From positions 1 through 59,428 of the IMG/VR virus record IMGVR_UViG_2866649352_000001: DNA of 59,428 bases, one strand, 5' to 3'. Positions within the stretch are counted from its first letter, which is position 1. Every line of letters begins with the position of its first letter. The position numbers were made by a program, and so were the translations under genes. Below the pieces are notes generated by a model that was given only the letters and a program-made list of their open reading frames with translations, did no database searches and was not told the origin of the DNA. Shown piece by piece: positions 13,487 to 59,428 of this stretch. This DNA comes from a virus.

Positions 13487-13550
13487 CGTGGCGCTCTGCG
13501 CCGACGACGAGGTGTTTGTCACGCCATAGTGGCTGACTAGAAAGGGAGAT

Positions 13551-14074: not shown

Positions 14075-14093
14075 CAGGTACTGATTCGGTCTG

Positions 14094-14115
14094 GGCCGGT
14101 CCTTCGGGACCGGCC
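14094..14115 (+). terminator. Stem-loop terminator
   Basis: ggccggtcc-ttcg-ggaccggcc. Confidence 0.6.
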
Positions 14116-14155
14116 TTATCCGTGTCCGTATCCGTGGATTTGGAGGAGAGGAGAT

Positions 14156-15430
14156 ATGGCCGAGAAGAAGACTCCAGTAGTCAGCGAAGTAGCCTTTGAC
14201 AACGTCTTCGGCAAGATGGCCGATGAGCTGGATCCGCACTGCGAAGGCGCAAAGATCGGCGTGATGCTGACTTTGATGTCAGCCTTCAGTGGTTACATCG
14301 GCCCTGATATTCGGGTGAAGATGGGCAGCGGGACCGCGCCCATGTCTATCTGGGCCGTTCTCGTGGGGGAGTCCGGCACAGGCCGGAAGGGCGCCACGGC
14401 TCGGGTAGCGATGCCCATCGTCCGTCGAGCCTTCAACAAGTGGGCGACTACCAGCATCGTTGATGAGGGTGTTCCGGCAACCGCCCTCGGCCTCCTGGCC
14501 GAGCTGGCGGACCGAGACGGGGCTTCCTGCTTCTTCCTGGAGGAAGAGGGAGACGACTTCGTTGGGGCGACCAAGAACAGCCGGAAACTTGGTCCCATGT
14601 TCCGGAAGGTCTGGGACGGCAGCCCGATCGGGCACAAGACAGCGAAGACGAACGTCCGTGTCGATGAGCCTCACATTGGCTTTGTGCTGCACGTCCAGCC
14701 GGACAACTGGGCTGCGATCACTGGCACCCTGAACGCGAGTGGTGGCACGTTCAACCGCTTCTTGCTCGTCTGGGTTGAGCAGTCGAAGACGGTGGACCTC
14801 TACCGGAGCGACGAGGAGGAGGCCGCTTACGCGGCGACTCAGAAGACTCTAGCCGATCGCCTTCGAGAGATGGGAACCCACGCCGCAAACCTCGGTAGGG
14901 ATGACCCGATAGACGTGACTCCGGATGTCGCCCGGCGCATCAAGGAATGGCACCGGCCTAAGTGCGAGGACCTGACCAAGGGCAACAAGGTCCTCGCCAA
15001 CATGTCCGAGAGAGCGCTTGCCTACATGGTTCGGCTCGCTGGCCTGATGGCCGTCGCCGATGGTCGGGACCAAGTCAGCATTGCCGATCTGGACAGCGCC
15101 CTTGCGATCGTCACCTACTCCGTGGATTCCGTTCGATACATCCTGCCGGAAACGGGAGGCGAGAGTCTCCGTCAGAAGATCCTCTACGTACTGGACGAAG
15201 CGCGGAACGAGAACGGCGAACCACAACCCGTTTCTCGGTCACAGTTGTGGGAGGAAATCGGCAAGCACATCAAGGCCGAGACGATAGAGAACGAGGCTGA
15301 GAAGTGCCCCAATATTCGCATGTGGAAGGGCAAATCCACAGGCGGGAGACCCCCTTTGTATATGCAGATCATTGACGACTTCGAGGAAGTCGAAGAGGCA
15401 GAGGAGGATTTGGTTTGCTCCGCTGTCTGA
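14156..15430 (+). CDS. DUF3987-like P-loop protein (helicase/primase-associated class)
   Basis: 424 aa with VLVGESGTGRKGA (Walker A-like); overall resemblance to DUF3987 phage and plasmid proteins. Family call is from memory. Confidence 0.5.
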   Translation: MAEKKTPVVSEVAFDNVFGKMADELDPHCEGAKIGVMLTLMSAFSGYIGPDIRVKMGSGTAPMSIWAVLVGESGTGRKGATARVAMPIVRRAFNKWATTSIVDEGVPATALGLLAELADRDGASCFFLEEEGDDFVGATKNSRKLGPMFRKVWDGSPIGHKTAKTNVRVDEPHIGFVLHVQPDNWAAITGTLNASGGTFNRFLLVWVEQSKTVDLYRSDEEEAAYAATQKTLADRLREMGTHAANLGRDDPIDVTPDVARRIKEWHRPKCEDLTKGNKVLANMSERALAYMVRLAGLMAVADGRDQVSIADLDSALAIVTYSVDSVRYILPETGGESLRQKILYVLDEARNENGEPQPVSRSQLWEEIGKHIKAETIENEAEKCPNIRMWKGKSTGGRPPLYMQIIDDFEEVEEAEEDLVCSAV

Positions 15431-16155
15431 CTCCGAAGTGCCGGACCGAACTCCCGTGGTCGGGTAAGGGCAGGAAGCCGAAGTACTGCCAGGTTCACAA
15501 GGCCACCAACGCCAGGAAGAAGAACACCCAGAGGAAGAGGAGGGTAGACAGACACAAGAAGGGACGGGCGGCGTCGCGCTTCGGCGAGCTGTGGCTAACG
15601 GATGGCAAGCCCATCCGCCGGGAGGCGTCCCAAGTCTGGGGAGCCACGGGTGAGAGCGACGATGACGTTTTCAACCGTTCCGGTGTCTTCCACAAGACAG
15701 GCCCTGACGGGCTCCCAGGGCTCGGACATTCGATTCCCACAACGGATGAGTACGGAGATGTCCGGTGGGCTCTTTCGGAGCTTCAGAGGCTCTCTGAGGG
15801 CCATGTGGAGATGGACGAGAGCGGGCTGATCCCCGAGGGTACCGACCCTCGCCTCCTGGAGGCTCGGGAGTGGCTGAAGGCCAACCCCGGATGGTGGAAG
15901 TTCGAGTCCGACGACGAAGGCCGGCCGAAGGGTTCACCGGCCGACGAGCACACCCACTTTTCGAAGGACATCCGGGAGACCGCCATGGTTCATGGCGGGA
16001 GCTACACCGATTCCCCGGACGAGTCCACGAGGAACGACAGGTGCTCGTTCTGCTGGAGCTGGAACCCGCTGATCGTTTTCGACGAGTTCTGTTCCGCGGA
16101 GTGCGCATTCGACTACATCACAACATTCGGTATGGATGGGAGACGGCATGGCTGA
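15415..16155 (+). CDS. Hypothetical protein with N-terminal zinc-ribbon-like and basic segment
   Basis: CLTPKC...KYCQVHK, then a Lys/Arg-rich stretch; TTG start after GGAGGA. Confidence 0.5.
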   Translation: MLRCLTPKCRTELPWSGKGRKPKYCQVHKATNARKKNTQRKRRVDRHKKGRAASRFGELWLTDGKPIRREASQVWGATGESDDDVFNRSGVFHKTGPDGLPGLGHSIPTTDEYGDVRWALSELQRLSEGHVEMDESGLIPEGTDPRLLEAREWLKANPGWWKFESDDEGRPKGSPADEHTHFSKDIRETAMVHGGSYTDSPDESTRNDRCSFCWSWNPLIVFDEFCSAECAFDYITTFGMDGRRHG

Positions 16156-16384
16156 CAACGCAACGCCCGGTGACTTTTTCGTCGATTGGGGGGACCTGGA
16201 CAACCCTCGGATTCGGCTCAAGGAAGAGGCTCCTCCGGGGAGCTTTGACAGGAGGTATGGCTACACCTTCCCGTGGTGCAAGGCGGTCATCAAAAAGCAC
16301 GCGCAGGAAAGGATAGATCATTGGACCAAGGTGAAGCGGGCCACCCAGGCGCTTCGAGTGAAGGACGTCAAGGGGGACGCCTAA
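16148..16384 (+). CDS. Hypothetical protein (78 aa)
   Basis: ATG after GGGAGA inside ORF 16136..16384. Confidence 0.45.
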   Translation: MADNATPGDFFVDWGDLDNPRIRLKEEAPPGSFDRRYGYTFPWCKAVIKKHAQERIDHWTKVKRATQALRVKDVKGDA

Positions 16385-16840
16385 GTGATCCCCCGGGATC
16401 CGTGGGCAAGGGTCCCCGAGGATGAACGCGTCCGCCTGGTGGTGGTTGTCGGGTGTAGTCGGGCCAAGCGGGACAGGCCGGCTGATGCCGGGGAGCTGTA
16501 TACCGGCAGCTTCCACAAGCTGTGCATGGAGACGGCTAGGAGCCTACGGCCTGACAGGCTGTTCGTTCTGTCTGCCCGATACGGCCTGGTCGGACCAGGC
16601 CACCCCATGAGGCCCTACGACACCAGGATCGGGGATCCGGACCAGGTGAAGCCTGCTCGCCTGGTGCGACAGGCCAAGATGATGGGCTGCTGGCAGTCGG
16701 ACCTGACGATCGTCCTCGCGGGCCGTGAGTACGTCGAGCTGGCGCGCAAGGTTTGGCCTGACGCGGTCGCTCCTCTGGAGGGAGCGAGAGGGATCGCAGC
16801 GATGCGACGGATCCTTGCGGAAATCCGAGATAGGAAATAG
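16385..16840 (+). CDS. Hypothetical protein (151 aa)
   Basis: ORF track; GTG start; the pattern VVVGCSRAKR...LYTGSFHKL...VLSARYGLV...PYD is conserved-looking but the family is not confidently named. Confidence 0.55.
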   Translation: MIPRDPWARVPEDERVRLVVVVGCSRAKRDRPADAGELYTGSFHKLCMETARSLRPDRLFVLSARYGLVGPGHPMRPYDTRIGDPDQVKPARLVRQAKMMGCWQSDLTIVLAGREYVELARKVWPDAVAPLEGARGIAAMRRILAEIRDRK

Positions 16841-16854
16841 CCCCATTCTGTGAC

Positions 16855-16878
16855 GCCGGTCTTCGGACCGGCTTTTTT
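16855..16878 (+). terminator. Intrinsic terminator
   Basis: gccggtc-ttcg-gaccggc followed by TTTTTT. Confidence 0.8.
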
Positions 16879-16901
16879 CATGCCAAATTGGAGGAGGAAC
16901 T

Positions 16902-17447
16902 ATGGACGTCGCCGAGGTGATGGATTCGATCGAGTCTTCGCTGACGGGCCTTTTCAGCCAGATGGAGATCGCCGAGGAGGAAATTGAGCTGGCGCAGAAG
17001 CGCCACGGTGAACCGCTGCTGCTCCGGGACACTGATGGACGGCCGGTCAACATGGACGAGATGGGTCCGATCTGGCATTCGTTCCGACTACTGGGCCCCG
17101 ATCCAGACCGCGGATTTCCGGAACGGATGGAAACCGAGCTGCTCTACCGGCAGCACTGCGCCGAGCTGCTGGATCGCGTGGCCGAAGGGTTGGACACTCG
17201 CGCCGCCACGGGGGCGGAGCTGGTCATTGCGTTGTCGGAGGCGAGCATGGTGGCTCCGCTGACCAGCTCGGGCGCGGGGCTCTACCTGAAGCTGATGACG
17301 CGCTACTTCCCCGAGACGCTCGGGGCTTCCTTCGAGGAGGTCGGCCTGGAGGTGAAGGACTACCAGAAGCTCCACGGTCAGCAGATGGAGCAGGACGAGC
17401 TGTTCCTGAGGAAGAAGCTCCGTCAGGACTGGCGGGTGCAGAAGTGA
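16902..17447 (+). CDS. Hypothetical protein (181 aa)
   Basis: ATG after GGAGGAGGA. Confidence 0.6.
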   Translation: MDVAEVMDSIESSLTGLFSQMEIAEEEIELAQKRHGEPLLLRDTDGRPVNMDEMGPIWHSFRLLGPDPDRGFPERMETELLYRQHCAELLDRVAEGLDTRAATGAELVIALSEASMVAPLTSSGAGLYLKLMTRYFPETLGASFEEVGLEVKDYQKLHGQQMEQDELFLRKKLRQDWRVQK

Positions 17448-17647
17448 GCGACGAAAGCCCGCCCGACCTCGTCAAGAGCAGGGCACCCACAGTGTGGGAT
17501 GTGGTTCGATGGCCTGAGTACTACATCAGCGGGCCTGGACGACAGCAGGCCGGGGAGACGCGGTGCGATCATGGGTACAAGCTCACGGACTCCTGCCCCG
17601 GCTGTGACGTGGACAAGGAAGACCTCCGGGAGAAGCTGAACAAGTAA
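17444..17647 (+). CDS. Hypothetical protein (67 aa)
   Basis: GTGA-coupled start; C.H...C.GC motif. Confidence 0.5.
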   Translation: MSDESPPDLVKSRAPTVWDVVRWPEYYISGPGRQQAGETRCDHGYKLTDSCPGCDVDKEDLREKLNK

Positions 17648-17666
17648 TCCGTAAACGACGAAACCG

Positions 17667-17699
17667 CCCCTAGCCAACATGGGCTAGGGGCTTTGTTTT
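17667..17699 (+). terminator. Intrinsic terminator
   Basis: cccctagcc-aacatg-ggctagggg followed by CTTTGTTTT. Confidence 0.7.
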
Positions 17700-17721
17700 A
17701 GAAACTAAAGGGAGAAACAGG

Positions 17722-18051
17722 ATGGCTACTGAGATCAAGACGCTTCTGCTCGACGACATTGACGGCTCCGAGGCCAAGGAGACGATCACCTTCAGCTTGG
17801 ACGGGGAAAGTTTCGAGATCGACCTGAACGACAAGAACGCGGCGAAGCTGCGTAAGGCCCTGCACCCCTTCATGGAGAAGGGACGTCGGCAGAAGGCCAC
17901 CAGGCGACCGGCTGGGACGAGCAAGCCCGACGCCAGTCGGGAGCGGAACCAGGAGATTCGGCAGTGGGCGAAGGACAAGGGGATTAAGGTAAACGAGCGG
18001 GGCCGGATCCCGATCCACATCGTGCAGCGCTACGAGGCCGCGAACTCCTGA
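17722..18051 (+). CDS. lsr2: Lsr2-like nucleoid-associated protein
   Basis: N-terminal LLLDDIDGSEAKETITFSLDGESFEIDLNDKNAAKLRKAL, a basic linker, and C-terminal IRQWAKDKGIKVNERGRIPIHIVQRY (AT-hook-like RGR). This is the classic Lsr2 two-domain layout. Confidence 0.85.
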   Translation: MATEIKTLLLDDIDGSEAKETITFSLDGESFEIDLNDKNAAKLRKALHPFMEKGRRQKATRRPAGTSKPDASRERNQEIRQWAKDKGIKVNERGRIPIHIVQRYEAANS

Positions 18052-18196
18052 GGAGGAAGACCGTTGGATCGATCATCGCTACGCGATCAAGTCCAGCGAG
18101 CCGTCGATGCCAGCGATGGTGAGTACGGCATCGACAGCTTGGACCACGACGAGTTCTGGACAATCGTGTTCGACCACAGCATCGATTGAGGGTGCC

Positions 18197-18388
18197 ATGA
18201 GTACACACGAGATCAGTCACCTCGACACCATTGAGATCGTTCTCCCGCGAGAGACCGGTCACGCGACCGTCCGAGTCACGGGTAGCGGGGAGATCCTCAT
18301 CAACGTCATCGATGACGACGGGAACGAGAAGGGCTTCTTCGCCAAGATCGACGACATCGTGAAGTCTCCCGAGGAGTTGGGCGCCTAG
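18197..18388 (+). CDS. Hypothetical protein (63 aa)
   Basis: ATG after GAGGG. A further 41-aa ORF at 18064..18189 (TTG after GAGGAGGA) is possible. Confidence 0.45.
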   Translation: MSTHEISHLDTIEIVLPRETGHATVRVTGSGEILINVIDDDGNEKGFFAKIDDIVKSPEELGA

Positions 18389-18406
18389 TCCAGAAACGAG
18401 AAAAGC

Positions 18407-18436
18407 GGGGCACCCCTTCGGGGGTGCCCCTTTCTC
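18407..18436. terminator. Bidirectional terminator between convergent plus and minus gene blocks
   Basis: ggggcacccc-ttcg-ggggtgcccc, flanked by A-run and T-run. Confidence 0.75.
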
Positions 18437-18501
18437 TTAGTTCCTATTTCCCACTGAAGTAGTAGGAAATCACAAGAACCCGCGCCGGATTTTCGACGGG
18501 A

Positions 18502-18762
18502 TTACAGCTTGTCCTTCACGTAGGCCACAACCGTTCCGACCACGGCCAGGCGGAGAGTCTCCATCAGGCTCGGTAGGTCGAACTCGCCCTCGACGGGCAC
18601 GGTCACGAGGACTGTCGCCACAGTCGAGAACACGGCAGCGAGCAGACCAACGGCAAGGGCGATACCTACACGCTTCACGCGGGACACCGACTCGGAAGTC
18701 AGCTCCCCATCGTCCAGGACGTCGAAGGCGACGTCCTTAGCAGTGTCCTTCAGTTCACTCAT
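18502..18762 (-). CDS. Membrane protein, holin candidate (86 aa)
   Basis: Hydrophobic segments VGIALAVGLLAAVFSTVATVLVTV and LRLAVVGTVVAYV; lies downstream of the endolysin. Confidence 0.5.
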   Translation of the reverse strand: MSELKDTAKDVAFDVLDDGELTSESVSRVKRVGIALAVGLLAAVFSTVATVLVTVPVEGEFDLPSLMETLRLAVVGTVVAYVKDKL

Positions 18763-18889
18763 TCGGACTCCTCAGATTGAGATAGATCACGTCAGGCCGG
18801 GCGTCCCACACGAGGACGCATGGGACGCCAAGCAGCAAAAGCAAGATGACGGTGACGAGGATCGGATGCGCCTTCAGTAGGCGCATCAT
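18755..18889 (-). CDS. Small single-TM protein (44 aa; below cutoff), lysis-cassette member
   Basis: Hand-translated: MMRLLKAHPILVTVILLLLLGVPCVLVWDARPDVIYLNLRSPNE; ATGA overlap with the endolysin stop. Confidence 0.4.
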   Translation of the reverse strand: MMRLLKAHPILVTVILLLLLGVPCVLVWDARPDVIYLNLRSPNE

Positions 18890-19647
18890 GTGACCGGCGA
18901 CTCCCATGTGGCACGCCAGGTGTTCGGGCCAACGATGCCGTCAACCGACAGACCCTTCTCGGCCTGGAAGCGACGACACACGGTCTTCGAGGCAGGGCCG
19001 TACCAACCGTCAACGGCGATGTCCCAACCGCGGTCCTTCATCCGCTGCTGCCACTTACGGCACGTCTCCGTCTTACGAAGAGGCGGGTACTGGAGCATCG
19101 GGCCGGGGAAGGCGGGAGCCTTCTCGGTCTTCGGCTTGGGCTTCGGGGTAGCGGGCTTGCTGGGTGCAGGGGTATCCAGCTCCCAGTCGGGACGGCCGTA
19201 GCCGGCCACTGTGGAGGCGTCGCGGACACGACGCTTCACAGCGTCGGAAGTGTTGGCCTCAATGGTCTGGATTCGGCCATCGCCGAGAACCTTCTCAATG
19301 ATTCCAACGTGGTCGATGGCACCAACGGAGTTGGTTGCTCCCCAGTCAAAGAAGACGATGTCGCCGGGCTTCGCCTTCTTCAGGTTGGCGACCGTTCCTG
19401 TGTACCAGCGCTTGGCCTTCTGGAAGTCCTGCGCGTGCCAAACCGTGTAGGCGCGATCTCCGCCTGGGAGGACGGCCGAGGCGTTGCCGCTGTGCCGGGC
19501 CCAGTAGGTGATGGCCATGTCGCACCACGCAGCGCGCAGGAACGCGTCCCCGTGGCGGTTGGCGTATTCCTTAGTGATCTTGTTTGGACGGCCCGAGAGA
19601 CCGATGTCGGCACGAGCCACCTTGAGCAGGTCGGTTGGACCAGCCAT
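18886..19647 (-). CDS. Endolysin: N-terminal CHAP/NlpC-like amidase-peptidase plus C-terminal peptidoglycan-binding domain
   Basis: Motifs AAWCDM...DHVGII (Cys/His), a Pro/Lys linker, and C-terminal CRKWQQRMKDRGWDIAVDGWYGPASKTVCRRFQAEKGLSVDGIVGPNTW (PG_binding_1-like). Confidence 0.8.
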   Translation of the reverse strand: MAGPTDLLKVARADIGLSGRPNKITKEYANRHGDAFLRAAWCDMAITYWARHSGNASAVLPGGDRAYTVWHAQDFQKAKRWYTGTVANLKKAKPGDIVFFDWGATNSVGAIDHVGIIEKVLGDGRIQTIEANTSDAVKRRVRDASTVAGYGRPDWELDTPAPSKPATPKPKPKTEKAPAFPGPMLQYPPLRKTETCRKWQQRMKDRGWDIAVDGWYGPASKTVCRRFQAEKGLSVDGIVGPNTWRATWESPVT

Positions 19648-37341: not shown

Positions 37342-37415
37342 TGGTGACCCCGGCGGGAATCGAACCCGCACCACGAGGGTGAGAACCTCGCAACCTCCCG
37401 TTAGTCCACGGGGCC
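37342..37415 (-). tRNA. tRNA-Glu (CTC)
   Basis: Hand-folded cloverleaf: acceptor GGCCCCG/CGGGGTC, anticodon loop TTCTCAC, T-loop TTCGATT, CCA encoded. Confidence 0.8.
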
Positions 37416-37416
37416 G

Positions 37417-37490
37417 TGGCTCCAGGACAAGGATTCGAACCTCGATTGCCGGGTTCAGAGCCCGGCGTCCTACCGTTAGACGATCCTGGA
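37417..37490 (-). tRNA. tRNA-Gln (CTG)
   Basis: Acceptor TCCAGGA/TCCTGGA, anticodon loop CTCTGAA, T-loop TTCGAAT, G73, CCA encoded. Confidence 0.8.
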
Positions 37491-37495
37491 ATGAG

Positions 37496-37568
37496 TTGGC
37501 TAGGCAGGAGTCGAACCCGCACCTTGCGCTTTAGGAGAGCGACGCTCTGTCCATTGAGCTACTAGCCA
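37496..37568 (-). tRNA. tRNA-Arg (CCT)
   Basis: Acceptor TGGCTAG/CTAGCCA, anticodon loop CTCCTAA, T-loop TTCGACT. Confidence 0.75.
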
Positions 37569-37569
37569 G

Positions 37570-37652
37570 CGGAGAATCAGGGATTCGAACCCCGGACGGT
37601 TTTACCCGCGACGGCCTAGCAAGCCGCTGCCATACCATTTGACGAATTCTCC
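37570..37652 (-). tRNA. tRNA-Ser (GCT), class II
   Basis: Acceptor GGAGAAT/ATTCTCC, anticodon loop TTGCTAG, long variable arm, 83 nt. Confidence 0.7.
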
Positions 37653-37653
37653 A

Positions 37654-37728
37654 TGGAGCCCCACACCGGAGTTGAACCGGTATCCTCTGATTGGAAGTCA
37701 GACATCATTGCCGTTAGACCAGTAGGGC
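37654..37728 (-). tRNA. tRNA-Gly (TCC)
   Basis: Acceptor GCCCTAC/GTGGGGC (one G-U), anticodon loop CTTCCAA, T-loop TTCAACT, CCA encoded. Confidence 0.75.
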
Positions 37729-37794
37729 AAGTACACTCTTTGGCTCCGCCGCATGTATGTCTGCGGACTTTGACGGGTAGAGTGCGGACCTTTG

Positions 37795-37867
37795 AGCCCC
37801 TACGAGGTGCTGCCCCCCGCTTTCCTGCTTACAAGGCAGGTACATTCGCTGATATGTTATAAGGGCT
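37795..37867 (-). tRNA. Candidate non-canonical tRNA-Thr (TGT)
   Basis: 73-nt element with an 8-bp acceptor AGCCCTTA/TAGGGGCT, D stem ACAT/ATGT, a perfect anticodon arm CCTGC-CTTGTAA-GCAGG and T stem CGGGG/CCTCG. The T-loop is GGCAGCA (no TTC) and the D-loop has no GG. Confidence 0.35.
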
Positions 37868-37935
37868 GGTTTTCCCACCAGGACCCATAGTCCCTCCATC
37901 TCCTCAGGGTGCTACCCCTCGGATTAACGGGAACG

Positions 37936-38022
37936 CGGAAAGCGGAGGACTCGAACCCCAACAGCAATGCCATCCACCCGTTTTCGAGACGGGGGCCGCA
38001 CCCACAGGCGACATCACTTTCC
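37936..38022 (-). tRNA. tRNA-Ser (CGA), class II
   Basis: Acceptor GGAAAGT/GCTTTCC, anticodon arm CCCGT-CTCGAAA-ACGGG, T-loop TTCGAGT, 87 nt. Confidence 0.7.
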
Positions 38023-38066
38023 ATCGCACGTCGATATTTTTACACGCCTCGACGGCGGGGCGAGAG

Positions 38067-38139
38067 TTGGTCATGTGGGAATTGAACCCACCATCTTCCG
38101 CGTATCAGACGGATGCTTTCACCACTAAGCTAATGACCA
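38067..38139 (-). tRNA. tRNA-Ile (GAT)
   Basis: Acceptor TGGTCAT/ATGACCA, anticodon loop CTGATAC, T-loop TTCAATT. Confidence 0.7.
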
Positions 38140-38141
38140 AG

Positions 38142-38215
38142 TGGAGCCTGAGAGATTCGAACTCTCGGCCTCTGGTTTGCAAGACCAGCGCTCTAACCAT
38201 CTGAGCTAAGGCCCC
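38142..38215 (-). tRNA. tRNA-Ala (TGC)
   Basis: GGGGCCTTAGCTCAGATGGTTAGAGC..., anticodon loop CTTGCAA, T-loop TTCGAAT, A73. Confidence 0.85.
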
Positions 38216-38610
38216 ATGTACTTTCCTGCGCAAGACCTACCGCAGAACGGTCCGGCCTTGCCTTGCTTCCTGTTGTGTCGCACCTTGCGAGCTTCCTTCT
38301 TTGAAGGCGTCTCACAGACAGGGCAGATGAACTCATACCACTCGACGCTCAACCTCAGAGCTGCACTCTTCTTTGCGTTCTCAGAACGAGTGAGCACGGC
38401 AAGGTTGCTGAGATCGTCGTTGGTCTTGTCCTCGTCGATGTGGTCAACGGTTTCGTCCGTGTCGAGCACCCGGCCGAGATGCTGTTCCATCAGGTGCCGG
38501 GAGTAGAGCTTGGTTGTGCGCTTGCCGTTGTCAGTAAGAACCACGTACCTACGCCCGGCAAGCGGTCCACTGTTGTGGACGTAAGGGCCGTTGACCCTGA
38601 GCATAGACAC
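38206..38610 (-). CDS. HNH homing-type endonuclease inserted in the tRNA array (134 aa)
   Basis: The motif ...VDHIDEDKTNDDLSNLAVLTRSEN... is HNH; C-terminal CPVC...C..SC. The last 10 nt, including the TAG stop, are the first 10 nt of tRNA-Ala. Confidence 0.8.
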   Translation of the reverse strand: MSMLRVNGPYVHNSGPLAGRRYVVLTDNGKRTTKLYSRHLMEQHLGRVLDTDETVDHIDEDKTNDDLSNLAVLTRSENAKKSAALRLSVEWYEFICPVCETPSKKEARKVRHNRKQGKAGPFCGRSCAGKYMGP

Positions 38611-38623
38611 GATCCTTTCGAAG

Positions 38624-38696
38624 TAGGCTCGGAGGGACTCGAACCCTCACTACACGGTTTCTAAGACCGCTCTCTCTACCATTGGAGTACGAGCCT
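38624..38696 (-). tRNA. tRNA with anticodon TAG (Leu codon CUA/CUG) but class I (short variable arm) body
   Basis: Acceptor AGGCTCG/CGAGCCT, D-loop AATGGTAG, anticodon arm GCGGT-CTTAGAA-ACCGT, 5-nt variable loop GTAGT, T arm GAGGG-TTCGAGT-CCCTC, A73. Confidence 0.65.
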
Positions 38697-38704
38697 AAGA
38701 AAAT

Positions 38705-38729
38705 ATGGGGTTGGTGGATTCGAACCACC
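38705..38729 (-). pseudogene. Orphan tRNA 3' half (T arm plus acceptor 3' strand) without a matching 5' half
   Basis: Perfect T arm GGTGG-TTCGAAT-CCACC followed by AACCCCA. No complementary TGGGGTT occurs in the next 100 nt (38730-38801), which instead forms GC-rich hairpins. Confidence 0.4.
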
Positions 38730-38801
38730 TCGCGTACCGCAGAGCCAGCCGCTTTCCCATGTGTCCGCGTCCGGACGCCCCGCCCGCCGTCGCGGGCTTT
38801 G

Positions 38802-38875
38802 CTGACCATGCAGGACTCGAACCTGCACCACCGGGATTAACAGTCCCGCGCACTACCTAGTTATGCTAATGGCCA
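38802..38875 (-). tRNA. tRNA-Asn (GTT)
   Basis: Acceptor TGGCCAT/ATGGTCA, anticodon arm CGGGA-CTGTTAA-TCCCG, T-loop TTCGAGT. Confidence 0.8.
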
Positions 38876-38920
38876 TTGAAGAGAAAATGAGGGGGCGCTA
38901 GCTTCCCCCTCATCATGATG

Positions 38921-38993
38921 TAGGTCCACCAGGATTCGAACCTGGACAACTCCGGGTAAGAGCCGGATGCACTGGCCGTTATGCTATAGACCC
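38921..38993 (-). tRNA. tRNA-Lys (CTT)
   Basis: Acceptor GGGTCTA/TGGACCT (two G-U), anticodon arm TCCGG-CTCTTAC-CCGGA, T-loop TTCGAAT. Confidence 0.75.
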
Positions 38994-39049
38994 ATGACGT
39001 AGGCTGTACCGTGCTACGCCCCACGGGAGGGGATTTACAGAACCCTCAG

Positions 39050-39122
39050 TGTGACTCCCAGGAATCGAACCTGAGACCTGCCGGGCTTCAACCGGCCGCT
39101 CTTCCAACTGAGCTAGAGCCAC
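39050..39122 (-). tRNA. tRNA-Phe (GAA)
   Basis: GTGGCTCTAGCTCAGTTGG..., anticodon arm GCCGG-TTGAAGC-CCGGC, T-loop TTCGATT. Confidence 0.85.
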
Positions 39123-39123
39123 A

Positions 39124-39198
39124 TGGAAGCGCCAACGAGATTCGAACTCGTATGAAGCAGGGTTGCAATCTGCTGCCTCACCATTCAGCCATGGCGCT
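39124..39198 (-). tRNA. tRNA-Cys (GCA)
   Basis: Acceptor AGCGCCA/TGGCGCT, anticodon loop TTGCAAC, U73 discriminator, CCA encoded. Confidence 0.75.
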
Positions 39199-39202
39199 TC
39201 GG

Positions 39203-39277
39203 CGATCCGTACCGGATTCGAACCGGCAACCTTCGGCGTGACAAGCCGATGCTCTAACCTGATTGAGCTAACAGACC
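39203..39277 (-). tRNA. tRNA-Asp (GTC)
   Basis: Acceptor GGTCTGT/ACGGATC (G-U pairs), anticodon arm TCGGC-TTGTCAC-GCCGA, G73. Confidence 0.75.
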
Positions 39278-39282
39278 GAGAG

Positions 39283-39354
39283 TACCCGTTCCAGGATTCG
39301 AACCCGGATTCCGAGGTTCGTAGCCTCGTGCTCTATCCGTTGAACTAAACGGGC
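39283..39354 (-). tRNA. tRNA-Arg (ACG)
   Basis: Acceptor GCCCGTT/AACGGGT, anticodon arm CGAGG-CTACGAA-CCTCG, T-loop TTCGAAT. Confidence 0.8.
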
Positions 39355-39406
39355 ATAGAGCAGGCGGAGCCTGCTCCAAGAGGGGACAACCTACGTTGTC
39401 CCTGAG

Positions 39407-39479
39407 GGTGACCAGAGGGAGTTGAACCCTCGCCTACAGGATCACAACCTGTCGTGCAAACCCTTTACACCTTGGCCAC
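39407..39479 (-). tRNA. tRNA-His (GTG)
   Basis: Acceptor GTGGCCA/TGGTCAC, anticodon arm ACAGG-TTGTGAT-CCTGT, C73; no encoded G-1 seen. Confidence 0.75.
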
Positions 39480-39481
39480 AG

Positions 39482-39553
39482 TAGATCCTCTTGGATTCGA
39501 ACCAAGGCCAACCTGTTTGTAGGACAGGCGCTCTTCCGCTGAGCTAAGGATCC
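39482..39553 (-). tRNA. tRNA-Val (TAC)
   Basis: Acceptor GGATCCT/AGGATCT, anticodon arm CCTGT-CCTACAA-ACAGG, with C rather than U at position 33, which is atypical. Confidence 0.65.
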
Positions 39554-39579
39554 ATAAGCACGGCGGAGCCGTGCTGACG

Positions 39580-39652
39580 TCGCGGACGCCTGGAGTTGCA
39601 CCAGGGGCCTTCGGGTTATGAGCCCGCTGCTCTACTACTGAGCTACGCCGCG
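39580..39652 (-). tRNA. tRNA-Met-type (CAT); initiator, elongator or Ile2 identity unresolved
   Basis: 5' CGCGGCG TA GCTC...; anticodon arm GCGGG-CTCATAA-CCCGA (three G-C pairs next to the loop); T arm CCTGG-TGCAACT-CCAGG (non-canonical loop); acceptor 3' strand CG(T)CCGCG needs one bulged T. Confidence 0.55.
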
Positions 39653-39710
39653 TAGTGGCTTTTGACCGGAGCCTCCAACCGGAACGATTCTTATGGCGTC
39701 GATCTACCCG

Positions 39711-39783
39711 TATACCCAGAGGGATTCGAACCCCCACCCCCGTGGTCCCAAACCACGTGCTCTAGCCATTAAGCTACGGGTAT
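39711..39783 (-). tRNA. tRNA-Pro (TGG)
   Basis: Acceptor ATACCCG/TGGGTAT, anticodon arm CGTGG-TTTGGGA-CCACG, T-loop TTCGAAT. Confidence 0.75.
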
Positions 39784-39926
39784 ATGTTTGTGGGCTGGTG
39801 AGTCTGTCAAGTACTCACACTTAGCTGTGAACAGAGCCCACTGAAATCCGGACCTCACATGCTGACGGAGTCAGCAGGCTTGAACCTGCAAGCTCCGCTT
39901 GCATGTAAGGGAACGGATGGTTTAAG

Positions 39927-39999
39927 CACGACGGGTAGGACTCGAACCTACACACACTGGTTTTGGAGACCAGCGCTCTTCCAATTGAGCTACCGACGC
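39927..39999 (-). tRNA. tRNA-Trp (CCA)
   Basis: Acceptor GCGTCGG/CCGTCGT (one U-U mismatch), anticodon arm CTGGT-CTCCAAA-ACCAG, G73. Confidence 0.7.
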
Positions 40000-40000
40000 A

Positions 40001-40083
40001 TGGTGCGCAGGGTAGGAGTCGAACCTACACAGCCAAGGGCGCCTGGTTTACAGCCAGGGCGACTCGCCAATGTCCGCCTACGC
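40001..40083 (-). tRNA. tRNA-Tyr (GTA), class II
   Basis: Acceptor GCGTAGG/CCTGCGC, anticodon arm CCTGG-CTGTAAA-CCAGG, 13-nt variable arm, CCA encoded. Confidence 0.75.
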
Positions 40084-40738: not shown

Positions 40739-40765
40739 CAGCCCCTCCGGATGAAAGAAGTTTCT

Positions 40766-40860
40766 CTAAGAGCCACCGAAGGTGGCTCTCTTAAGAGAGA
40801 CAGCCCTTTAGGGGCTGTCTCTAAGTAAGTAGTTAGTAGCAACCCCTTAGGGGTTGCTTA
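40766..40860. repeat. Three consecutive strong hairpins upstream of the late (minus-strand) operon
   Basis: Hairpins agagccacc-gaa-ggtggctct (extended imperfectly), gagacagccc-ttta-ggggctgtctc and agcaacccc-ttag-gggttgct, separated by TAAG/TAGT-rich linkers with stops in all frames. Confidence 0.7.
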
Positions 40861-40949
40861 ACCAGTTGGGTCGTCGGTCGTTCGGGACTTCGTCCCTCTC
40901 TCCCTCCTCCCAGGGAGAGTGATGTGCCTCAGGAGGCCGAAGCGTGGCA

Positions 40950-41330
40950 CCGAGCCAGTGTGACCTTTGTCACAGGACCGGAGGTCAGACCTTATGTGGC
41001 CACTGTGACCTGGGCCATGTCACCTCACAGCGGCCGAGTAGGCACGGAAGGTAACTGTTCACACACTGTGATCGCTCGGAGTGCGATTCCAGATTGAACG
41101 ATCAACCGTCGAGACCTGCGCAAATGTCGGGGACGCGACGGTTGTGGCCGAGGTTTACTTGCGTTTCGGTCAAGACTCGACCAAGAGGTCAAGCCGCCGA
41201 CCTCCCCGTTGTCCGGTTCGCGGAGATGTGCATACAGTGACAGCCGCCACGGAGGGTGAATGCAAGTGCAGGGGGGTGGTCGGAAGGGTTTCAGTGACAG
41301 TGCGTGTCCAAGGTGGTGACAGTCCGTTCA
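40950..41330. promoter_or_regulatory. Cluster of GTGACA(G)/TGTCAC motifs, some as inverted repeats (operator-like)
   Basis: tgtgac-cttt-gtcaca (40959-40974); gtgac-N9-gtcac (41005-41023); GTGACAG at 41237, 41294 and 41316. Confidence 0.45.
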
Positions 41331-41390
41331 CCAACTGGGGTCTGACCTGGGGGATCTCCCGAAAAACGGGGACAGGGTGAGAGCGGCAAG

Positions 41391-41426
41391 TTACAGCAGC
41401 TTGATAGCAGTGTGTTAGCGTCAGCC
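41391..41426 (+). promoter_or_regulatory. Conserved promoter-like element, copy E (divergent)
   Basis: ACAGCAGCTTGA TAGCAGTGTGT TAGCGTCAGCC shows 11-nt phasing as in the other copies; lies 60 nt upstream of the HTH gene. Confidence 0.35.
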
Positions 41427-41486: not shown

Positions 41487-41963
41487 ATGGCCCGACCTAG
41501 GAAGGTAGAAGACGAAGTACTCGTCCAAATGGTCCTGGACGAGATCCCTTACGCCGAAATCGCGAGTGAGGTCGGCGTGACGATCTCTGGCGTGAATCAG
41601 AGAGTTCGCCAACTACGGCGAGCGGGCAAGCTCCCGCCCGTGAAGTACGTGGACCATAAATGGGCGATTCCGTGGACCATCGCCACTGAGCACCAGAAGA
41701 ACCGGGTTGCGATGTATCTACGGTGGCTTTCCAGGACGGCCCAGGGCGATGAAATCCTCCAGGAGAATCGCAACACTGCGCTTAGGTGGGCCCAGACGCT
41801 AGTAGACGAGAATCGCGACGTCGATTATGACCGAGACGCGCCACCAAACGATCTGAGCAAGCAGGGGGGATTCTTCCTCAGGGAGGCAGACCCTGAGAAT
41901 TGGCACCTGAAGATGGTTTTGGACAAGGCCAAGGCAGGTGTCCTCAAGAACAAGAAGCGCTGA
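41487..41963 (+). CDS. HTH DNA-binding protein (158 aa), first gene of the rightward block
   Basis: IPYAEIASEVGVTISGVNQRVRQLRRAG is an HTH of sigma-region-4/LuxR-like shape. Confidence 0.55.
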   Translation: MARPRKVEDEVLVQMVLDEIPYAEIASEVGVTISGVNQRVRQLRRAGKLPPVKYVDHKWAIPWTIATEHQKNRVAMYLRWLSRTAQGDEILQENRNTALRWAQTLVDENRDVDYDRDAPPNDLSKQGGFFLREADPENWHLKMVLDKAKAGVLKNKKR

Positions 41964-43057: not shown

Positions 43058-43068
43058 GTCTCTCTTTT

Positions 43069-43101
43069 TTGACTCATTACAGCACATCGTTAGCACAGTG
43101 A
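43069..43101 (+). promoter_or_regulatory. Conserved promoter-like element, copy B
   Basis: T-run, TTGACT, 16-nt spacer, cAGCACATCGT TAGCACAGTGA, then GAGGAGG RBS. Confidence 0.5.
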
Positions 43102-43112
43102 GAGGAGGTGCT

Positions 43113-46794: not shown

Positions 46795-47572
46795 TGTCCA
46801 GATGCCCTATGAATCAAAGCGGATGCTGAAGAACGTCATTGACTTCATTGGCGTCTGGCAGCCGGACGAGGTTTACCAGATCGGGGACCTCATGGACTAC
46901 CCGACTCCGTCTCGGTGGTCGAAGGGAACTCGGGACGAGTTCGCCCAGCTCGTCAAGGAGCACAGCGAGTACGGGAAGCGCAACTTCCTCGATCCTCTCC
47001 GGGCCGTCTACGACGGGCCGGTAGGCGTGTTGGAGGGCAACCACGACGAGCGGCCTCGGGTCTACCTGACCAAGGAAGCTCCAGCTCTGGCCGAGTTCCA
47101 GGATGTTGTGCACTTCAGCACCCTGTTGGATTTCGACGGCTTCGGAGTGAGCCACACGCCCGCCTTTCACAAGGTCGGACCTGACACCGTGCTCGTTCAT
47201 GGCCACGAGATCAAGGGCTACTCGTCCGTCGCAGGGACGACTGCTTACAACCATGCTCGGAAGGCTGGAGCCAATGTCATCTGCGGACACACTCACCGTC
47301 TTGGAATACGACGAGAGACTTTCGGAAACAGTTCAACGGGATATACGACCCGATGGGGATTCGAAGTCGGACATCTCATGGCAATGGATAAGGCCGGATA
47401 CCTTGGCGCTGGTGGAGTCGCGAACTGGCAGGCGGGTTTTGGTCTGCTCTACGTCGGCGACTACGACGTCCAGCCCGTAGAGGTGGACGTCAATCGGGAT
47501 GGCTCCTTCGTCGTCGAAGGCACCCGCTATGGCGCTCTGAAGAGGGGCCCCGGTGGTCGTTTTTCGGTCTAG
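46769..47572 (+). CDS. Calcineurin-like metallophosphoesterase
   Basis: Motifs ISDVQMP, GDLMD, GNHDE, VHGHE, GHTH. Confidence 0.75.
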   Translation: MKRVVVISDVQMPYESKRMLKNVIDFIGVWQPDEVYQIGDLMDYPTPSRWSKGTRDEFAQLVKEHSEYGKRNFLDPLRAVYDGPVGVLEGNHDERPRVYLTKEAPALAEFQDVVHFSTLLDFDGFGVSHTPAFHKVGPDTVLVHGHEIKGYSSVAGTTAYNHARKAGANVICGHTHRLGIRRETFGNSSTGYTTRWGFEVGHLMAMDKAGYLGAGGVANWQAGFGLLYVGDYDVQPVEVDVNRDGSFVVEGTRYGALKRGPGGRFSV

Positions 47573-47597
47573 TTTTAGCACATTGTTAGCACATTGA
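47564..47597 (+). promoter_or_regulatory. Conserved promoter-like element, copy C
   Basis: T-run, CGGTCT, 16-nt spacer, and TAGCACATTGT TAGCACATTGA (a near-perfect tandem 11-mer). Confidence 0.5.
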
Positions 47598-47611
47598 GAG
47601 TAGGTGAGAAC

Positions 47612-48355
47612 TTGTTTGAGCAGGTGACCCTTGAGCAGCTCATGGAGCTGGCTTCTCGGGCTGGGAAGGAGGTCGCCCGGAAGTATCCGGGGGTTGAGGC
47701 CGAGGACATCGCCTCGGAGGCTCTCTCCTCCCTCATGGAGAAGCTTGACCGCGTTGCGGAGATGGCCCCTGGCTACCTCTACGAGGTGCTGCGTCGGGGT
47801 GGTCTCACCTACGCGGCTGCCCAGCGCTACCAGTACATCGTTGAGTCCAGCCAGTACGTCTACACACCCAAGGAAGTTCGGGCGCTGCTGGAGCATTGCT
47901 ACTACGACCCGGCCGCGTGGGATGTCCCGACCGGTGAGGACGACTGGCTGAGTGCCGAGATCGACGGACAGTCAATCGGTGTCGCTCTGATCGACATCAA
48001 GGTCGCCATGAAGGCGATCTCGCCCGCCCACCGGAACGCCCTGGAGTGCCGGTTCTACAAGGGCGATACCTCGGTGGAGCGGAAGCTGATCTCTCGCGCC
48101 ATCGATTCACTCGTCCGCGCCCTGAATCGGAAGATCAACGGCTTCGAAGGCGACTTCGAGGGCCGAAGGTCGATGTCGAATGGCGAGGCGCAGAGGCGAA
48201 TCTCCTACGAGATGGAACAGGACTCGTCCTACCGGTCCGATGCGCTGGACGAGTATCACGACATCCGGTCAGCTACTGCGGTTGCACGGGATTTCCAGGA
48301 CCCACCCGGAACATGGTTCGACTGGTCGAAGTACACACAAAAGGAGGCGGCTTGA
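47612..48355 (+). CDS. Sigma-70-family (ECF-like) factor candidate
   Basis: Region-2-like VEAEDIASEALSSLMEKL and region-4-like ISPAHRNALECRFYKGDTSVERKLISRAIDSLVRAL. Start is uncertain: TTG 47612 or TTG 47594. Confidence 0.5.
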   Translation: MFEQVTLEQLMELASRAGKEVARKYPGVEAEDIASEALSSLMEKLDRVAEMAPGYLYEVLRRGGLTYAAAQRYQYIVESSQYVYTPKEVRALLEHCYYDPAAWDVPTGEDDWLSAEIDGQSIGVALIDIKVAMKAISPAHRNALECRFYKGDTSVERKLISRAIDSLVRALNRKINGFEGDFEGRRSMSNGEAQRRISYEMEQDSSYRSDALDEYHDIRSATAVARDFQDPPGTWFDWSKYTQKEAA

Positions 48356-51388: not shown

Positions 51389-51407
51389 CCTGAGCCCAGT
51401 CCTTTTT

Positions 51408-51440
51408 TTGGCTAGTTATAGCACATTGTTAGCACATTGA
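51408..51440 (+). promoter_or_regulatory. Conserved promoter-like element, copy D
   Basis: T-run, TTGGCT, 16-nt spacer, TAGCACATTGT TAGCACATTGA; followed by the hairpin gagggcaccctcc-tccg-ggagggtgccctc and the polA RBS. Confidence 0.5.
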
Positions 51441-51486
51441 GGGCACCCTCCTCCGGGAGGGTGCCCTCCGTCTTGGAGGGAGGGGG

Positions 51487-57999: not shown

Positions 58000-59211
58000 C
58001 TAGCTTCGGCTGCCCAGAAGAAGCTTCGCCATCTCGGCGGCGATGGCCTTCTTCTCTTCCTCGCTGTGGTCGTATATCTCGACCACGGCCCGGGAGCGCT
58101 GTCCGAGGGCATCCCCAACCGTGTCCCGAGAGGCTCCCAGATCACTCGCGATGGTCGCCCACATGTGCCGTAGGTCGTGGGGAGACGCCGGGGGAAGCTC
58201 TGCGTACCGGCCGAGGCGTCTGAACCGCTCCGTGACGTTACCGGGGTCCATCGGGATACCGGGCAGGAATACCCGTCCCTTCACTGACTTCTTCAGGATC
58301 GGGCGGTCGAAGACCACACCGGTTTCCTCCCAAGGCCCCTCGGCCTTGGCCTTCTCTTGCCGCTCCTTCTGACCGAGGAGGATTTCCTCCAGCAGGTCGT
58401 CCATGTGCAGGACGATCCGCCGGCCGCCCTTCTGGCTGACCTCTACGACCCCTTCAGGGGTAATGGTCCGGTTGGTGGAAGCAACGATACGGTGCTTCTC
58501 AAAGTCGATGTCGGACCATTTGAGGCCCAAGGCCGTTCCCCGGCGAACGCCAGTGGCAGCCATGAAGCACCACAGAGCCCTGAAGGAGGGCTCTGTTTCC
58601 ATCTTCAGGAAGTCGAGGAACTGCTCGACGGTCCATCGCTCCTTGGGGGTGGTCTTCCGATCTGCGTCGTAGTGGAGGGCCTCTTCGCGAAGCTTCCGGA
58701 CGCCACCAGAGACCTTGGTCCAATCCGCGTCCAGGAGGTGGTTCACCACGCCGTAATCCATGATGGCGGAGAGGACAGTCACCCTGTTGACAAGCGTCGT
58801 CGGGACGCGAGGCTCGCCCTTGTACTTGATGGCCCGGATCTTCAGTACCCACTGGTCTACGTGTAGGGGGAGGATCTCATCCAGGGCCATCCCCCCGAGG
58901 TAGGGCTCGATGTCCCTCTTGTACCAGGTCTTCCAGTGGGAGCTGGTCGTGCTCTTGACCGTCTCAGCGGCCCAGAACATCTCCGCCAACTTGTTGAGGG
59001 TCATACTCTTGGTCGGCCGCTTCTTGGCGGCCTGCTGTGCCTTGATCCACTCGACAGCGGCTTTGTGGTCTTTGAGACCGCGCTTCCAGAGCCGTTCGGA
59101 CTTCTTCGTGAACGGGTCCTTGATGCTGACGGCGGCGTCGTAGACGATCTCGCCGTTGGCGAGCGTCCTCGGCCGGATGCTTCCGGCCCCATTCCTCGCC
59201 CTCTTGCCCAT
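58000..59211 (-). CDS. int: Tyrosine integrase (403 aa)
   Basis: Catalytic-domain signatures ...GVRRGTALGLKWSD..., ...HDLRHMWATIASDLG... and ...VEIYDH (R, HxxR, Y). ATG 59211 follows GGAGGG; the TTG at 59226 is the alternative start. Confidence 0.85.
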   Translation of the reverse strand: MGKRARNGAGSIRPRTLANGEIVYDAAVSIKDPFTKKSERLWKRGLKDHKAAVEWIKAQQAAKKRPTKSMTLNKLAEMFWAAETVKSTTSSHWKTWYKRDIEPYLGGMALDEILPLHVDQWVLKIRAIKYKGEPRVPTTLVNRVTVLSAIMDYGVVNHLLDADWTKVSGGVRKLREEALHYDADRKTTPKERWTVEQFLDFLKMETEPSFRALWCFMAATGVRRGTALGLKWSDIDFEKHRIVASTNRTITPEGVVEVSQKGGRRIVLHMDDLLEEILLGQKERQEKAKAEGPWEETGVVFDRPILKKSVKGRVFLPGIPMDPGNVTERFRRLGRYAELPPASPHDLRHMWATIASDLGASRDTVGDALGQRSRAVVEIYDHSEEEKKAIAAEMAKLLLGSRS

Positions 59212-59301
59212 GTCCCTCCAGCTCAACTGTGACAGGAACTACAGCATACGCGCTCCGTCGCCGTGTCGAACGAGGTCAGAGGGATGTGGATCTTGCTTCT
59301 A
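59212..59301. other. attP-candidate intergenic region (continues across the circular junction into 1..186)
   Basis: About 300 bp of non-coding sequence next to int. It contains CTGTGACAGG (59227-59236), TTGTGACAGG (109-118), GTGTGACATG (69-78) and the inverted repeat GTGACAC-N5-GTGTCAC (122-140). The core was not identifiable. Confidence 0.3.
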
Positions 59302-59428
59302 GCAATCCACCCACACAAGACGCTCCACGCCTATACCCTCCTTGACCTGCCAAAACACCCGAGCGGAGAGTGTGACATGTCCAGATTTGACCAGCGACGA
59401 CGGACTCGATTGTGACAGGACTGTGACA
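59302..59428. repeat. Second copy of the 127-bp terminal overlap
   Basis: Identical to 1..127. Confidence 0.95.

Follow-up and report, generated by a model that had tools for sequence, protein, structure and literature searches.

In stoperator-type silencing, a monomeric repressor halts elongating RNA polymerase at oriented sites. To our knowledge, this mode of silencing is well studied in the cluster A mycobacteriophages only. The cluster A repressor of known structure (TipsytheTRex; PDB 7R6R/7TZ1) binds asymmetric sites as a monomer, its two DNA-binding domains entering consecutive major grooves on the same side of the helix (PMC9283540). The sites are asymmetric, co-oriented with transcription, and located in short gaps or overlapping gene ends (PMC9283540, PMC6550527). 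Sites in promoters are operators and those in short intergenic spaces are stoperators, and their orientation, which tracks the direction of transcription, is required for silencing (PMC9283540). In mycobacteriophage L5, a gp71 site lies upstream of gene 71, and in cluster A lysogens transcription that starts 5' of the repressor gene falls off after crossing the neighboring gene and the Cas4 gene (PMC6550527). Among Streptomyces phages, R4, ELB20, Zemlya and phiHau3 have been proposed to carry stoperators (Smith et al. 2013, cited in PMC10276819), and a repressor-stoperator system has been proposed for the Rhodococcus cluster CA phages (PMC13313380). Hence, gp71-type systems are known beyond Mycobacterium.

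The window analyzed here is the whole 59,428-nucleotide stretch of the IMG/VR virus record IMGVR_UViG_2866649352_000001. A repeat search of the window revealed that bases 1–127 recur at 59302–59428, and the sequence is therefore a circularly assembled genome of 59.3 kb with the following main features:

218–508, minus strand: gene of an Xis-like HTH protein
4.8–18.4 kb, plus strand: block of small genes
20–37 kb, minus strand: structural genes
37.3–40.1 kb, minus strand: 20 tRNA genes
41.4–59 kb, plus strand: replication arm
58000–59226, minus strand: tyrosine integrase gene, which marks a temperate lifestyle

Since both an integrase and an Xis-like HTH protein are encoded, the phage is temperate, and a temperate lifestyle with a tyrosine integrase in turn calls for an immunity repressor. 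The nearest isolated phages are the Streptomyces phages Success and Ibantik and the Thermobifida phage P318 (39–56% capsid identity), and the closest sequences overall are metagenome contigs and a Spirillospora prophage. The host is likely a Thermomonosporaceae/Streptomyces-type actinomycete. A nucleotide search against the phage collection yielded an RNR fragment as the sole match.

Comparison of the gene order in the window with the L5 annotation drew attention to an HTH gene at the head of the replication arm and co-directional with it:

41487–41963, plus strand: gene of a predicted immunity repressor of the L5 gp71 family (158 aa, N-terminal HTH and ‘Stoperator’ domain)

The encoded protein is ~20% identical to gp71. 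A tblastn search with it against the phage collection gave no match, and profile and fold methods were therefore needed to recognize the homology. PHROG 357, with L5 gp71 as its archetype (E = 2.9e-79), was matched over ~120 of 170 positions by the window protein and by its orthologues from Ibantik, Success and three of the relatives described below (L030, L032 and L033); the HTH protein of a further relative, L031, did not match PHROG 357. With a profile of the window family, the first PDB match was the ‘Immunity repressor’ 7R6R/7TZ1 (E = 8.3e-7, residues 19–134, covering both domains). The AlphaFold model (pLDDT 78) had 7R6R_A as its sole significant PDB match (E = 1.9e-5, probability 1.0, TM 0.54, 143 columns). 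Judged from sequence profiles and the predicted fold, the HTH protein and the L5 gp71/TipsytheTRex immunity repressor are distant homologues.

The initial annotation of this DNA had described a promoter-like element with a tandem 11-mer in front of several gene blocks, and all sequences that it quoted were confirmed in place. The element is a tandem 11-mer of 22 bases, YAGCA-N6-YAGCA, and its five plus-strand copies (A–E) precede the early block, the HTH gene, the DnaB gene, the sigma-like gene and polA. These copies, a related site F and two associated features are located as follows:

3499–3533, plus strand: site F, one good unit TAGCACGTCGT after AACAGGGTGT, in a long non-coding region
4683–4725, plus strand: copy D, units TAGCAGGTCGT and TAGCAGACCAT, near the head of the small early gene block
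41390–41426, plus strand: copy E, three phased units CAGCAGCTTGA, TAGCAGTGTGT and TAGCGTCAGCC, without a T-run
43060–43102, plus strand: copy C, units CAGCACATCGT and TAGCACAGTGA, with GAGGAGG directly 3'
47556–47598, plus strand: copy B, between the metallophosphoesterase gene and the sigma-like gene, with a ribosome-binding site directly 3'
47612–48355, plus strand: gene of the sigma-like protein, homologous to L5 gp53 (‘sigma-K factor’ by annotation; PHROG 354)
51399–51441, plus strand: copy A, T-run, TTGGCT and units TAGCACATTGT and TAGCACATTGA
51442–51467, plus strand: GC-rich hairpin GGGCACCCTCC-TCCG-GGAGGGTGCCC, directly 3' of copy A and 5' of the polA ribosome-binding site

Copy A sits between the gp49-like gene (end 51388) and polA (ATG 51487), copy C between the Cas4/PD-(D/E)XK exonuclease gene (end 43057) and the gene of the DnaB-like helicase, and copy E 60–95 nt 5' of the repressor gene. 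Two start codons were corrected, that of the sigma-like gene to a TTG at 47612 and that of the DnaB gene probably to 43113. The intergenic, plus-strand placement that had been claimed holds for all five tandem copies, each of which lies between plus-strand genes. The 22-mer TAGCACATTGTTAGCACATTGA occurs exactly at 47576–47597 and 51419–51440 and with three mismatches at 43080–43101, with zero matches expected in shuffled sequences. For the degenerate form YAGYA-N6-YAGYA, six matches were found versus 0.37 expected (simulation maximum 3; n = 300, both strands of the 59.3 kb), and copies A–E account for five of the six. An independent repeat search grouped copies A–D as one 43-nt repeat family. 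Copy E, previously taken for a looser version, turned out to be a full homologue: 18 of 25 positions agree with copy C, and it carries three phased units. Single 11-mer units showed no enrichment elsewhere in the window, and the window motif scan detected no copy in the structural arm or late operon. An exact scan of viral and genome collections with the motif TAGCACATTGTTAGCAC returned single chance-level matches in unrelated low-GC genomes and no relatives. Some of the matches in that scan were CIRCE-like TTAGCAC half-sites.

The replication arm encodes, in this order, the HTH protein, a small protein, the Cas4-type exonuclease, DnaB, endonuclease VII, primase, metallophosphoesterase, the sigma-like protein, RNR, a gp49-like protein and PolA, which is the order of genes 71 to 44 in the right arm of L5. 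In that arm, the L5 13-mer GGTGGMTGTCAAG occurs 23 times at ≤2 mismatches, 22 times in the same orientation. The L5 sites read CTTGACAKCCACC on the sense strand and have a ribosome-binding site directly 3', as do copies B and C of the window. Four L5 slots correspond to window copies:

Upstream of L5 gene 71: copy E
Directly after the L5 exonuclease gp69: copy C
Between the L5 metallophosphoesterase gp54 and gp53.1/gp53 (‘sigma-K’): copy B
Directly after L5 gp49: copy A

The first window copy downstream of the repressor gene thus adjoins the end of the Cas4 gene. The window and cluster A share a temperate lifestyle and a two-domain repressor homologue in the same syntenic position. They also share asymmetric, co-oriented sites in promoters and in the gaps between stop codons and ribosome-binding sites, a site 5' of the repressor gene, and a TTGNNA core at the 5' side of the site that is usable as a −35 box. 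Streptomyces phage phiHau3 likewise has a repressor-exonuclease-DnaB-sigma-RNR module and ~27 co-oriented sites, and its stoperator core GTGTG(T/A)TAG (motif taken from PMC10276819, Table S3) resembles TTG(T/A)TAGCA of the window. The best window match of the phiHau3 matrix was inside copy E. As the window copies did not score above the random maximum with either the L5 or the phiHau3 matrix, no sequence homology of the sites is claimed. Both the sequence data and the analogy with L5 make it probable that the tandem 11-mers are binding sites of the phage's own gp71-family repressor (41487–41963). Homology, synteny and the behavior of the sites render this binding most likely, and the best reading of the copies is that of repressor operator/stoperator arrays, some of which overlap promoters.

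A different explanation starts from the sequence upstream of the units. Copies A–D could be stand-alone early or middle promoters with TTGGCT or TTGACT as −35 box and TAGCAC as −10 box, lacking any repressor role and recognized by RNA polymerase with either the host principal sigma factor or the phage sigma-like protein, the latter of which would explain the odd −10 sequence. Copies A, C and D do share with an actinobacterial sigma-70 promoter bearing an UP-like T-tract the T-run, a TTGNCN hexamer (4–5 of 6 positions matching TTGACA), a 16-nt spacer and a TAG-initial hexamer (TAGCAC or TAGCAG). Moreover, the copies precede gene blocks, E and D/F are placed where promoters are needed, the phage encodes a sigma-like protein, and a polA transcript starting ~7 nt past unit 2 would carry the conserved hairpin at its 5' end. 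However, actinobacterial −10 boxes have the form TANNNT with a near-invariant final T. Both TAGCAC and TAGCAG lack this T, and a consensus promoter scan called no promoter at any copy, so that the −10 box proposed initially is not supported. The architecture described in the initial annotation (T-run, −35-like hexamer, 16-nt spacer and two 11-mers) was recovered at A, C and D, but the upstream half is coding sequence in B and D. At copy B, the T-run and the −35-like hexamer fall within the 3' end of the upstream ORF, and the metallophosphoesterase stop codon (TAG, 47570–47572) lies within the copy; at copy D, the C-terminus of the small ORF located upstream is encoded by the T-run and TTGGCC, and this ORF terminates at the TAG with which unit 1 begins. 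No copy precedes the late operon, whereas one precedes the sigma-like gene itself, and the sigma-like protein therefore cannot start the cascade. In addition, evidence for a sigma fold in this protein is weak (best E = 0.1, among matches with sigma-28 and with ECF sigmas). Taken together with the relatives described below, we consider stand-alone promoters an unlikely explanation of copies A–D.

Three other assignments were tried and rejected. When the TTGTTA of the motif itself was taken as a −35 box at A–D, no −10 box was found 16–18 nt downstream. Reading the motifs of Success and of the window as SigB-type or ECF-type promoters failed on inspection, as the spacings did not fit. As for upstream terminators that would use the T-run as their U-tract, a convincing preceding hairpin was present at copy C only, too little for a general explanation.

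Relatives were reached through protein homologues and their contigs rather than through single-protein-seeded locus searches of viral and metagenome contigs. Three lineages had clear tandem 11-mers in the same four slots, each with its own lineage-specific sequence, and a fourth showed a reduced set:

L030 (JGI contig): sigma-like protein 75% identical to that of the window; units TAGCAGTGTCC CAGYAGNGTGT
L032/L036 (prophage of Spirillospora sp. NPDC047279): sigma-like protein 48% identical; units CAGCAGTTTGA CAGCRGTTKGA
L033: sigma-like protein 43% identical; units TAGCGTGTTGA TAGYRWGTRGA
L031: sigma-like protein 50% identical; tandem 11-mer only 5' of the HTH gene, looser copies elsewhere

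Copies after the exonuclease gene are present in L030, L032 and L033. In the slot of copy A, 5' of polA, the tandem is clear in these three and looser in L031, and no copy was found before the sigma-like gene of L031. Three-unit sites homologous to copy E, followed by TAGCNT or TACGCT, occur 5' of the HTH/repressor gene in L030–L033. The initial expectation that the element would be conserved at orthologous positions in related phages was thus borne out, which supports a conserved cis-regulatory element with a set orientation ahead of early and replication genes. The promoter elements were not conserved along with it: in L030, L032 and L033 the tandem units abut the upstream stop codon without a T-run or −35 box, and the second unit begins CAG (CAGYAG or CAGCRG) in two of these lineages. 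An unconserved and partly coding upstream half and a −10 hexamer without the final T are the two respects in which the window copies are unlike sigma-70 promoters.

Where the relatives do have clear promoters at the motif, it supplies the −35 box and not the −10 box. The Spirillospora prophage carries four further copies in the non-coding region before its early block, and in two of them the TTGACA of the motif is followed after 17–18 nt by TAGATT or TAAGGT, forming canonical promoters. The site of Ibantik is single and spans 16 nt (GGTTGWCACGAGACAT); in five copies, its TTGWCA is followed after 17–18 nt by CATACT, TAGGGT, CATGCT or TAGACT. Success carries a 20-nt site of its own in slots comparable to these. 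The L5 Pleft operator offers a parallel to the use of the motif as a promoter −35 box in Ibantik and the Spirillospora prophage. Site F in the window is built in the same manner as these motif-embedded promoters, with a −35 box GTGTTA (3505–3510), 17 nt and a −10 box TAGCTT (3528–3533), and is the only one of A–F that fits a −35/−10 pair. It had first been described as a half-site at 3509; as a unit it has no statistical standing, but its −35/−10 pair makes site F a candidate repressor-controlled early promoter. In copy E, the third unit opens with TAGCGT, which fits the form TANNNT of a −10 box alone. Of the two binders suggested initially, a regulator is the best reading; that the element is chiefly a promoter read through TAGCAC, possibly by the phage sigma-like protein, is not supported in that form.

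Both the units and the repressors differ among the window, L030, L032 and L033, with 64% repressor identity between the window and L030, although these are few genomes and the sigma-like protein diverges too. Lineage-specific sites with a conserved repeat would fit the pattern reported for diverging repressor/stoperator pairs. All relatives that encode the repressor also encode the sigma-like protein, and co-occurrence can therefore not separate the two as binders.

The sites could be bound by another phage protein: the gp53-like ‘sigma-K’ protein might simply bind DNA, or an OmpR/SARP-type activator might read the 11-bp repeats. Winged-helix activators that bind head to tail typically use direct repeats with an 11-bp period, which suits such a protein; the OmpR/PhoP/GlnR/SARP boxes of Streptomyces are head-to-tail repeats one turn apart that lie beside or overlap promoter elements. 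The sigma-like protein, which gave tblastn matches to cluster A phages, accompanies the motif in every relative examined. In contrast to those boxes, the unit sequence in the window is unrelated, copies A–D have no properly spaced −10 box (~8 bp after the last unit), and no OmpR- or SARP-type protein was found among the scanned ORFs, which covered part of the window. The experimentally studied homologous system also assigns such a site distribution to the gp71 repressor (PMC9283540), and we regard binding by one of these other proteins as improbable.

Still less probable, to the point of being very doubtful, is that the element acts in RNA, as a translational-regulator leader motif, a processing site or an antitermination signal with the hairpin. 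Copies lie directly before ribosome-binding sites, and, as read from the sequence, each of the three frames of the 22-mer contains a stop codon. The hairpins after the polA and repressor copies persist across genomes with changed sequence; at polA, a GC-rich hairpin of different sequence follows the copy by 0–5 nt in L030–L033 and, with the window, is present in all five genomes. The units themselves have no consistent fold, however, and hairpins follow two of the five copies only. No Rfam family was found in the scanned region 2400–4900, which includes D and F, and in relatives the TTGACA of the motif doubles as a DNA −35 box.

We return to the repressor as the probable binder. The sites with their orientation, positions and conservation, and the homology and synteny of the repressor, were established directly; the binding of the repressor to these sites, its stoichiometry and its roadblock activity are inferred from homology, synteny and site behavior. 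In a lysogen, the repressor would occupy the asymmetric, transcription-oriented sites and keep the early and replication genes silent. At promoter-associated copies (F, possibly E with its TAGCGT, and possibly A–D) it would block initiation. Copies A–D may be weak promoters with the spacer and −10 box covered by repressor sites, in that the units overlie these two parts of a weak TTGNNN-16-TAGCAC arrangement. Copies in the gap between a stop codon and the ribosome-binding site of the next gene would act in the stoperator mode as orientation-dependent roadblocks to RNA polymerase. Such a roadblock would confine transcription to the unit of the repressor gene, the small gene and the Cas4 gene, and copy E would provide autoregulation of the repressor. 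The 11-bp period places the YAGCA cores in successive major grooves on one helix face, a placement that matches the two DNA-binding domains of the solved cluster A repressor.

Some features speak against the repressor. The two domains of a monomer are not identical and would not be expected to read identical tandem units, monomers placed 11 bp apart would collide if both spanned two grooves, and repressor binding alone leaves the 43-nt conservation of A–D, including the T-run and TTGNNN, unexplained. The window has two or three tandem 11-bp units (22–33 bp) per array at five to six sites, none of which is in the structural arm, whereas a cluster A site is a single 13-bp sequence, and cluster A and CA phages have 20–35 single sites of 13–14 bp. 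The sites of the Streptomyces and Rhodococcus phages are also numerous single 14–16-mers. Furthermore, unlike in cluster A, the structural operon of the window is inserted between two early arms. The cluster A model thus does not explain the identical tandem units, the small number of sites or the conservation of the T-run in A–D. Tentatively, and as a reading more likely wrong than right, we suggest that the lineage comprising the window, L030, the Spirillospora prophage and an ENA contig has remodelled its stoperators, such that a two-domain monomer would read one 11-bp unit with each HTH-like domain. On this view, the dozens of single cluster A sites would have given way to a few arrays at module boundaries, which would serve both as roadblocks and as operators that overlap the −10 box of weak internal promoters. 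If true, two domains converged on the same half-site, and the lineage would offer an example of how the site of an asymmetric monomeric repressor evolves.

By repressor family, synteny, site orientation and placement, the window belongs with the known gp71-type repressor-stoperator systems; the phased 11-bp tandems and the small number of sites depart from them, and tandem 11-bp phasing was not found in the stoperator literature compared here, which comprises the works cited. A distant branch with a homologous repressor and a different site grammar, in the form of phased 11-bp tandems at module boundaries, is a natural comparison that could help to separate how the domains read DNA, the dependence on orientation and the evolution of immunity specificity. 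The data also yield immunity determinants and candidate operators for a group of uncultured temperate phages with Thermomonosporaceae/Streptomyces-like hosts, and they advise caution in annotation, where such motifs should not be labeled promoters by default. Upstream of the repressor gene, a candidate promoter of the form TTGTCC-18 nt-TACAGT was detected ~180 nt 5' of copy E:

41209–41238, plus strand: candidate promoter inside a TGCATAC block

The TGCATAC block of this promoter region is conserved in L030, L031 and L032.

The window carries an exact direct repeat of 127 bp at both termini (positions 1-127 are identical to 59302-59428) and is therefore a complete, circularly assembled genome of about 59.3 kb. 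Consequently, the plus-strand arm at 41-59 kb runs on into 1-4.7 kb.

Features of the window, with equivalents in related genomes (L030, L031, L033 and the Spirillospora prophage L032) and in the Streptomyces phage Success (L001)
601-2059: host-like moron cluster with a HATPase_c_2 anti-sigma-type protein (minus strand), an XRE-HTH/DUF5753 protein and a DUF397 protein
2189-2504: terminator-like hairpin (CCTCCGGGGGAGG and a T-run), then an in-frame ATG (2221)
2830-3930: about 1.1 kb lacking a convincing ORF; includes site F, a candidate early promoter with one good unit of the tandem 11-mer motif
5767-5794, 7666-7691, 9516-9550, 16855-16872, 17666-17691, 18407-18430: terminator-like hairpins, early plus-strand block
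14156-15430: DUF3987 primase/helicase-like protein gene, early block
17722-18051: Lsr2-like nucleoid protein gene, early block
37342-40083, minus strand: 20 clustered tRNA genes heading the structural minus-strand operon
40740-41300 (L030 3061-3700): long non-coding region lying between late operon and repressor gene
41340-41390 (L030 about 3750-3795; equivalents in L031, L032 and L033): conserved block CTGACCTGGGGAATC-N3-CGAAAAAC-N6-9-GGTTGAG
51442-51467 (L030 11716-11740; also in the polA leaders of L031, L032 and L033): GC-rich hairpin
L001 6375, 13837, 20434 and 21315 (minus), 8127 (plus): copies of the Success element RGTTAGTTGCCTCCTGGGTA

The moron cluster resembles WhiJ/BldB cassettes in style, which points to a developmentally complex actinomycete as host. 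Its XRE/DUF397 pair also occurs at the same relative place in the Spirillospora prophage (L036 1377-2380). The ATG at 2221 starts a lipoprotein-type signal sequence (MKGRILLFGAVLAVATAC), and this ORF is a probable moron expressed in lysogeny.

Strong terminator-like hairpins are numerous throughout the early block, and a scan of positions 1-19000 returned 27 terminator-like sites versus 12.9 expected. This points to several short transcription units or to elements acting on RNA stability. The Lsr2-like and DUF3987 proteins are both common to the window and to the Spirillospora and Actinomadura prophages. The prophage equivalent of the non-coding region around site F (L036 3949-5380) contains four copies of the motif as well as a GGTTCGAATCC segment resembling a tRNA.

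Upstream of the repressor gene, the conserved block lies directly 5' of motif copy E in all five genomes (window and L030-L033) and is possibly an additional promoter or operator element for this gene. The long non-coding region at 40740-41300 shares conserved blocks with L030, e.g. GTGATGTGCC..GAAGCGTGGCAC, and may serve as a cos, origin or divergent-promoter region. The polA-leader hairpin, which often has a UUCG-type loop, differs in sequence in each of these five genomes and is always located 3' of the polA motif copy and 5' of the ribosome-binding site; its possible roles are 5' stabilisation, attenuation or termination of the upstream unit.

The number of tRNA genes is far above that in Success (8) or the Streptomyces phage Ibantik (2). 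Success has its own repeated element of 20 nt. Four copies run in the same direction as the genes, and the fifth, which lies between the integrase and an HTH gene, points the other way; as for the window motif, a T-run precedes two of the copies. Chance 17-mer matches to the motif in L004 and L008 (IMG/VR) and in L018 and L020 (Afipia MAG) fell within unrelated tandem TTAGCAC/TAGCAC arrays, and those in Lachnospiraceae and Eubacterium contigs were CIRCE-like TTAGCACTC-N9-GAGTGCTAA operators. The word TTAGCAC turns up repeatedly across unrelated operator families.
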